Positions 24,797-25,318 of a DNA stretch of 64,000 nucleotides are shown piece after piece. The number at the start of each line of letters is the position of its first letter. The stretch's first letter is position 1. The notes under the pieces were generated by a model, which saw only the letters and a program-made list of their open reading frames with translations, was not told the origin of the DNA and made no database searches. The DNA is from Eledone cirrhosa (taxonomy: Eukaryota): contig OZ024741.1 of assembly GCA_964016885.1 (NCBI GenBank), forward strand, positions 192,510,001 to 192,574,000. The letters run 5' to 3'. A program made the position numbers and the translations under genes.

Positions 24797-25013
24797 TAGC
24801 GGTCATTAACCAGCGACGTTGCGCACCCCGGCCAGCCCGGGGCCCAACGGCGTGTCAACCGTTCCGAGTATTTTCGTCTAGCGAAAGAAAGGAAATTTAT
24901 TTTTCCGAGCACTCCAGCAATGTTAACTGTCTTAAACGTCGGGTGTGTTAGCAGGAAGTCCGCCACCGTCGGTTGGCCATCGCATATACCAAACGATTAC
25001 TAGTTATTCACAC
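24797..25013 (-). ncRNA. Unassigned ~220-nt structured RNA domain, copy A
   Basis: Diverged paralogue of 25100-25318. Helices are conserved by compensatory changes; G-U pairs form only on the minus strand. Confidence 0.6.
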
Positions 25014-25099
25014 TGGTGGGGGATTTAGTTGAGTGCTAGTAGAAGGAGGCATGATAAAGTTAATAGTTATGATTAAGCCTAGAATTTAAAGGTACTGTT

Positions 25100-25318
25100 T
25101 GGCGGTCAGTAACCGGTTGCACAACAGATTCCAAGTCTAAAAGGGCCCCAGAGCGAAACCGCCGCTCCGAGTATATTCGTTTACCGAAAGAAGGGGAAAT
25201 TTAATTTTTCCAAGCACTCTAGGAAGGCTGATCGACCTGAACGCCTGGCGTGCAGTCGGGAAAGCCGCCATATCCGTCGGATCATCGCGTGTACCAAACG
25301 ATTATTAGTTATTCACAC
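25100..25318 (-). ncRNA. Unassigned ~220-nt structured RNA domain, copy B
   Basis: Same helix order as copy A with different stem sequences. Confidence 0.6.

Follow-up and report, generated by a model that had tools for sequence, protein, structure and literature searches.

The window, meaning the whole stretch of 64,000 nucleotides analyzed here, comes from Eledone cirrhosa (contig OZ024741.1, positions 192,510,001 to 192,574,000, forward strand). It carries a repetitive element with two tandem domains, A and B, which are copies of one ~220-nt module read on the minus strand, together with a hammerhead ribozyme (HHR). On sequence comparison, the module is an undescribed and conserved domain without an Rfam match, and its host is a large non-LTR retrozyme, or non-autonomous Penelope-like element (PLE), with PLE insertion signatures. 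Unit positions (U) are numbered from the first base past the predicted hammerhead cut. The parts of the element, including the start sites assigned to reverse transcriptase (RT), are as follows.

25100..25318 (minus strand), domain B, the upstream copy in transcript order; conserved core at 25142-25251; covariance-model match of 91 bits.
24797..25013 (minus strand), domain A; conserved core at 24839-24946; covariance-model match of 94 bits.
25014..25099 (minus strand), spacer between A and B, AT-rich and without CpG; belongs to a ~305-nt duplication unit.
24628..25860 (minus strand), inverted arm of the element; unit positions U427-1642.
25862..26890 (plus strand), direct arm of the element; U1455-2078, continuing from U1 to ~U430; opens with the last ~30 nt of A.
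26426..26483 (plus strand), PLE-type minimal type I hammerhead; CUGAUGA at 26430, GAAA at 26468, palindromic GAUC loop III.
After 26479 (plus strand), hammerhead cut predicted from the sequence; no Rfam match.
26480..26663 (plus strand), post-hammerhead region with two inferred RT start sites, U55 = 26519 and U202 = 26663, where family copies end.

The preliminary description proposed that A and B are homologous on the minus strand, keep shared single-stranded blocks and differ by compensatory changes in their stems. The homology is confirmed by 155 identical columns out of 248 in an alignment that includes the flanks, and the blocks and helix words it listed are present in both copies. Its observation that the 3′ end of A is copied again at 25862 also holds: 25862-26051 matches 24628-24818 at 94% identity and continues to the type I hammerhead at 26426-26483. 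The order B-A-...-HHR that it deduced for the un-inverted transcript is seen in other copies (L004, L031). The compensatory changes between A and B are not upheld at the family level and are mostly private to the window copy. An alignment of 23 A and 24 B copies was accompanied by word counts in the window subfamily: among 44 B copies, AGCGG and TCGCT are each found in 3 and TTTTAG in 2, and among 39 A copies ACCGACGGT is found in 3. The stem variants first described thus appear, from these sequences, to be mostly post-insertion mutations. A hairpin with a GAC loop nevertheless persists, in other forms, in both A and B. The A/B pair is repetitive, with 1,718 candidates in a DNA search, full-length matches 89-93% identical (40 scored), and 204 exact matches to a 20-mer of the 5′ block against 0 in the control. 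The module is judged to be more than chance because it is conserved across families, not because of the A/B pair.

Mapping the window on 30 loci and on longer stretches defines a unit of ~2,078 nt that runs from hammerhead to hammerhead and lacks an open reading frame (ORF). One locus (L031) is a head-to-tail dimer with its two HHRs 2,077 nt apart. Within the unit, B occupies U954-1172, A occupies U1258-1477 and the hammerhead lies at the end; the longest sense-strand frame is 84 codons. Comparison with the ORFs of 19 loci chosen by GIY-YIG matches found no PLE coding relic inside 11 units. The preliminary description had placed the domains in a PLE pseudo-long terminal repeat (pseudo-LTR), a location that is rejected because the unit is ORF-less and its RT/GIY-YIG neighbor at 20685-24050 is an unlinked relic, absent from 29 of 29 other loci. 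A predicted hammerhead follows the module in every close family and in the majority of distant-family loci. It has a short helix I, a long helix II and a palindromic loop III, the same features described for PLE motifs (PMC4209133).

The ends of the copies past the hammerhead are not scattered. Among 120 loci, a few of which overlap the same insertion, U43-62 or U195-206 accounts for 136 of 165 ends past the hammerhead, and because of this clustering the RT start is placed outside the module. An RT signal within the module, as first suggested, is thus less likely than a start in the post-hammerhead region. Outward-pointing inverted pairs combine one short and one long end in 33 of 39 cases and two alike in none (a few loci overlap); examples are L035, L039, L040, L043, L068 and L081. 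The pattern fits a genomic signature of two target strands primed at two RNA positions separated by ~147 nt. For an Anolis PLE, two internal sites of RT start and extension on two strands have been shown (PMC11167929). Copies are mostly dispersed, 5′-truncated or inverted, and their ends run into (TA)n; no 3′ A-tract was found at copy ends and poly(A) was not seen. In the window (25860 and 26890), the inverted arm begins at U427 and the direct arm stops at ~U430, so that together they hold almost exactly one permuted unit; a circular template or a subsequent rearrangement could account for this. The outer ends of the window element are both non-canonical as copy ends.

The module belongs to a superfamily. 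An exact pattern for its core has 1,631 matches genome-wide against 1 in the control. Diverged relatives were first revealed by loose read ends and then retrieved, and 264 distinct copies were clustered, 240 of them into 20 groups with 24 singletons left out; this survey was made by pattern and may miss more distant families. Elements carry the module as B-A, as B-B, singly (the distant D families) or four times (L141), and it lies 0.26-1.35 kb upstream of the hammerhead in distant-family loci with a pattern-matched hammerhead. The 5′ third is replaced in some B families and the 3′ strand is lost in A28/A29; the core is kept in all. Family-level identity is 0.87 in the core compared with 0.58-0.75 elsewhere in the module, and 41 positions, most of them within the core, are identical in at least 19 of the 20 groups. 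When four D loci are compared with the L004 unit, the core aligns at 75-76% identity (E = 6e-9 to 3e-13), and at E < 1e-3 nothing else matches except the post-hammerhead region of two loci and a single 66-nt stretch. The core is considered to be under selection because it stands out as a conserved island among families whose remaining sequence barely aligns, and this island, as judged from sequence, is the strongest evidence of selection. A covariance model of the core, a step suggested in the preliminary description, was built and recovers both window copies with the scores given above. A 16-mer from the tail has 3,720 matches; among the first 30, two extend as far as the module and the others are short pieces.

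Two features of the module change between lineages. In B38-B40 (L135:1041-1289, L156) the ancestral UGGCGG strand decays and a new UGGCGG stands ~12 nt downstream, and the 3′ CCGCCA stays as it was, so that one strand of the helix has apparently migrated. Most copies of the single-module and B-type families keep the AAUAAA of the P7 loop (window ~24898-24903 and ~25200-25207); six A-type groups have lost it, probably in one event, and their loop is palindromic or nearly so.

The proposed secondary structure has a core and an outer shell. In the core model, P4 closes a junction made up of P5/P6, from which hairpins P7 and P8 branch off, and of hairpin P9. In domain A the long-range helix P4 is predicted to enclose P5/P6, the two-hairpin junction P7/P8 and hairpin P9, the P7 loop contains AAUAAA, and the 3′ strand GGUUAAU-GA-CCGCUA could pair with the 5′ AAUAACU and with UGGCGG. 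The shell is proposed to consist of P1, which would join UGGCGG to CCGCYA, and of two newly proposed contacts: PK, between the 5′ AAUAAC tract and the adjacent GUUAUU, and PK2, a short 2-bp contact from the H1/H2 joint to the P4/P5 joint.

Support for this structure comes from how pairs change between families. Family-level alternative pair states are canonical in 30 of 58 cases; for private mutations of single copies at these sites the figure is 190 of 626 (Fisher p = 0.001), with registers set by hand and related families that are not independent. All 106 candidate stems taken together give 279 of 957, which is the neutral rate. The signal is carried by P4 (9 of 15 states paired), P8 (5/9), P9 (3/5) and PK (4/5), and P1 is intermediate (4/8). 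Two-sided changes are seen at 3 of the 5 pairs of P4, 3 of 5 in P8, 1 of 3 in P9, 1 of 6 in P1 and 1 of 4 in P5. Compensatory examples are U-A to A-U in P8, C-G/U-G/U-A in P9, and both C-G/U-G/U-A and A-U/G-U/G-C in P4. The ratio of G-U to A-C states is 21:7, compared with 145:147 in private mutations (p = 0.008). PK2 was chosen from family 1 alone and shows AU/GU/GC and CG/UA/UG on the unfitted alignment A4, where its score is reached by 0 of 500 shuffles, is the best among slid registers and passes 3 of 5 measures; just its two inner pairs hold broadly. Alignment A4 as a whole clears 2 of 5 measures, beating 500 of 500 shuffles for paired cells and for two-sided cells, but not for pair types.

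A number of results weigh against a conserved fold, beginning with the hand-set registers and the relatedness of the families just noted. H1 (1 of 6) and P5 (2 of 7) have no excess of kept pairs, and when decoy stems are the reference (149:92) the excess of G-U does not reach significance (p = 0.12). Alignment A5 passes no measure clearly (best, 21/500). The proposed helices do not stand out in a strand-swap scan free of alignment, which gave 10 windows at z of at least 4 and likewise 10 in the reversed control. In held-out families and unfitted columns, P1, PK, H1, P3 and P4 rank 65-103 of the 106 stems; only P5-P7 rank high, through invariance, and P6 and P7 cannot separate RNA from DNA constraint because they hardly vary. 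RNAalifold gives a weak and partly different fold for family 1. Single copies fold no better than shuffled sequence on the minus strand (z = -0.70 and -1.47) or on the plus strand (z = -0.64 and -0.18); minimum-free-energy z-scores are ordinary and without strand preference. In the family 1 master lineage, the domains have a substitution rate of 3.7-11%, not below that of the flanks, compared with ~2% for the hammerhead and U1-202.

Taken together, the core hairpins are probable and the long-range helices are plausible but unproven; we infer that the outer shell (P1, PK and PK2) is losable or rebuildable around a nested core of P4-P9. The covariation expected among further homologues came out in part: there is an excess of kept pairs in hand-set registers, and unbiased scans did not confirm the long-range helices. 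The central proposal of the preliminary description, a conserved functional element, probably RNA, undescribed and tied to a PLE-type hammerhead, stands on much broader support than it first had; the first interpretation as a whole is partly supported.

A passenger of PLEs that encodes no protein would need transcription, processing, an RT start, survival and a meeting with RT. Since the hammerhead and U1-202 would account for processing and the RT start, the module would serve transcription, survival or the meeting with RT. Compensatory changes, the G-U bias and nested stems favor action as RNA, and for this reason we prefer, tentatively, the reading that the module likely folds as RNA and is a protein-docking and stability module for trans-mobilization of a protein-free template RNA. 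Transcripts would be read-through products or internally promoted, and dimeric hammerheads would cut or hold them. RT would use U55 and U202 as priming sites. By binding a putative partner, a host or RT-associated protein, the module would help the template RNA to persist and to capture a Penelope-type RT made by another element. By analogy with the two arms of Alu, module duplication may add avidity. A bolder and more doubtful extension is that the module represents a new class of pseudoknotted animal RNA domain, present in 1-4 copies, through which protein-free Penelope parasites dock on a host or RT ribonucleoprotein in an Alu-like manner, with a shell that would shift between an internal-tract pseudoknot and a U-rich loop like that of the element for nuclear expression (ENE).

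The main and serious rival, though on balance we think it unlikely, is a multimerized internal promoter or enhancer selected as DNA, in which the hairpins would be inherited or secondary. Promotion is the one necessary cis-function without another location. The module is a CpG-rich island, with 18-20 CpG per copy, whereas the spacer has none and the upstream 540 nt have 7, and its copy number varies (1, 2, 4). The CpG-rich tandem monomers of the mouse L1 promoter would be a parallel. Invariant inverted GGAAA words in the module resemble NFAT/Rel/ETS sites and were counted for the promoter. The module also lies upstream of the hammerhead, where PLE promoters lie (PMC6765202, PMC8557442). DNA binding sites, however, would not be expected to show the compensatory changes in P8, P9, P4 and PK2 or the G-U bias, and the inverted repeats are nested with variable spacing. 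The base after CCGCCA varies, so that a YY1-type core is not kept.

An alternative confined to the outer shell, and improbable, is an ENE-like triple-helix stabilizer in which P1, together with an internal loop rich in U and with P2, would capture an A-rich strand, either the 5′ AAUAA tract of family 1 itself or another A-tract elsewhere. The succession of a G-C stem, a pyrimidine or U strand, an upper stem, a U-rich strand, a purine bulge and a G-C stem resembles the ENE layout (PMC7583470), and ENEs aid plant retrotransposons (PMC12501189). The B lineage without the 5′ tract has strands UUUU and UUUU(UU): B38/B39/B40 have UUUU with a partner of 4-6 U, and B35 has AUUU. The U-enrichment is restricted to this one nested lineage, however. 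The window family has ACUU/UUAUU and CUUU/UUAUU, and the window's own A has only ACUU/UUAAU. Distant families place G-U pairs in the tract helix, A28/A29 lost the shell while keeping the core, and the module sits in mid-transcript (U954-1477) in elements with no poly(A) or 3′ A-tract at their copy ends.

Two further functions raised in the preliminary description fare worse. A new self-cleaving or ligating ribozyme would suit a multi-helix junction with invariant unpaired bases and possible pseudoknots, yet it is most unlikely: unit boundaries and copy ends are already explained by the hammerhead and the post-hammerhead sites, an internal cut would sever the template, there is no match to an Rfam ribozyme, and nothing in the analysis supports a second ribozyme. 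Equally improbable is a leader like an internal ribosome entry site (IRES), inherited from an autonomous PLE, or a ribosome-binding relic. The size and pseudoknotted layout would allow it, and an AUG follows A in the window's lineage. That AUG is present in 25 of 27 A1 and 7 of 9 A2old copies and in 0-1 copies in the other 18 groups, and it opens a short frame; an IRES is unlikely because the unit has no ORF and an AUG after A is common in only 2 of the 20 groups. The 11 units without a coding relic and the absence of the module from 50 PLE-ORF loci point the same way. The idea that the module is an unselected duplication with chance pairings in G/U-rich sequence is barely credible and largely refuted for the core, which is kept as an island with its 41 near-invariant positions, even though unbiased covariation tests are negative, folding energies are ordinary and repeated UUCC/GGAA words permit many alternative stems.

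Searches for known families and relatives covered Rfam, viral and metagenome contigs, sequencing runs and PLE loci. Rfam 15 (including ribozymes, IRES, RNase P/MRP, signal recognition particle (SRP), 5S and tRNA) gave 0 matches at the gathering threshold in the window and none over A or B at E ≤ 10, so that the comparison with Rfam proposed at the outset matched no known family. In eight family loci at E ≤ 5, there was one weak HTH-XRE match near a module (L103, E = 2.6, opposite in kind) and the rest were mostly microsatellites. Group I/II intron, lariat-capping ribozyme, RNase P/MRP, dicistrovirus and hepatitis C virus-type IRES, twister, pistol, hairpin and VS ribozymes, a 5S- or tRNA-derived head and splice-donor masking were considered and dropped for want of a match. 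Viral contigs gave 0, 17 and 0 pattern matches, the 17 without a profile match to the module. Metagenome contigs gave 8 matches, with best profile E values of 0.07 (nhmmer) and 0.008 (covariance model, 3 of 8 tested); no hammerhead follows them and they were judged to be chance. Sequencing runs that contain the sequence have one organism label, and no RNA run is among those listed. The module had no linked match in 50 PLE-ORF loci (30 short and 20 long GIY-YIG loci of 10,596 candidates), among which L296 has an inserted fragment of the element only, and no autonomous partner with a homologous pseudo-LTR was found among the loci examined. No description of the module was found in the literature searched; Repbase/Dfam, subscription papers and preprint supplements could contain the families as repeats. 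The word 'ribozyme' was not found in the accessible part of a 2026 octopus repeat annotation.

The surroundings of the element contain other repeats. A broken PLE RT/GIY-YIG relic with a weak RT match occupies 20685-24050 (plus strand), and a 92%-identical relative of it (L290) has no unit sequence beside it. A second PLE relic at 44759-47539 has RT and GIY-YIG at 45855-46901 and is accompanied by an inverted pseudo-LTR pair of 511 nt; the profile detected no hammerhead of the studied type there. Minimal type I hammerheads with a palindromic GCGC loop stand near PLE ORFs at L296:1033 and L297:4962, with no module found beside them. Perfect long palindromes at 26926-27483 and 13122-13601, with arms of 261 and 212 nt, resemble miniature inverted-repeat transposable elements, and similar sequence flanks a family-2 copy in L118. 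The window also holds a satellite of ~90 copies of a 40-nt unit at 51000-54600, a 718-codon RT frame at 31979-34135 (minus strand) with a PHD-like match directly after the RT domain, and at 24128-24316 what we take to be a likeness to a short interspersed element (SINE), which would make the cephalopod origin suggested at the outset plausible.

In the consulted parts of the literature on PLEs and animal retrozymes, the RNA signals described are the hammerhead and the region of the RT start. That ORF-less elements carry a third cis-module, strongly conserved, would point to a missing step, whether transcription, RNA survival or RT capture, and the 20 family groups are natural variants for testing that step. 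The strict pairing of short and long ends offers a genomic readout of two-strand priming by PLE RT and bears on the mechanism of PLE integration.

Among known systems, the Alu dimer and the mouse L1 monomers share with the module the arrangement of tandem ~200-300-nt modules in a retroelement, serving RNA docking in Alu and transcription in L1; neither by sequence nor in Rfam does the module resemble SRP or other small RNAs, and the likeness to Alu is an analogy only. ENEs (PMC7583470, PMC12501189) share a U-rich internal loop beside G-C pairs with one sub-lineage, whereas the module has a large conserved inserted domain, lies in mid-transcript, has weak U-runs in the window's family and shows no poly(A). 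Chlamys elements such as MRC1 (PMC8557442) are likewise non-coding, PLE-mobilized and found as head-to-tail copies; they differ in lacking canonical hammerheads and in occurring in green algae and other non-animals, and the accessible text mentions no such module. PLEs with minimal HHRs in their pseudo-LTRs (PMC4209133, PMC8557442, PMC11167929) agree with the window hammerhead in helix I (short), helix II (long) and loop III (palindromic), and PLEs share partial tandems, inverted 5′-truncated arms, microsatellite or AT-rich targets and two RT starts past the hammerhead. The window element differs from them in having no ORF and in ends ~147 nt apart, compared with a 30-40-nt tail in PLEs. In organization the element resembles metazoan non-LTR retrozymes, which are ORF-less tandem units each with a type I hammerhead and have been proposed to be non-autonomous PLE derivatives (PMC7229834, bioRxiv 10.64898/2026.07.22.740005). 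The host class is therefore known, and these members are about twice the size of the largest reported monomers. Retrozyme monomers are given as ~220-350 nt, or as 51-972 bp in a search limited to period 1000, compared with ~2,078 nt here, so the window unit falls outside the short-monomer (<1 kb) definition and the present elements stretch retrozymes to ~2 kb, beyond the size limit of that recent survey. A conserved internal module is not described for non-LTR retrozymes in the accessible text of these sources, whereas the present elements carry one.
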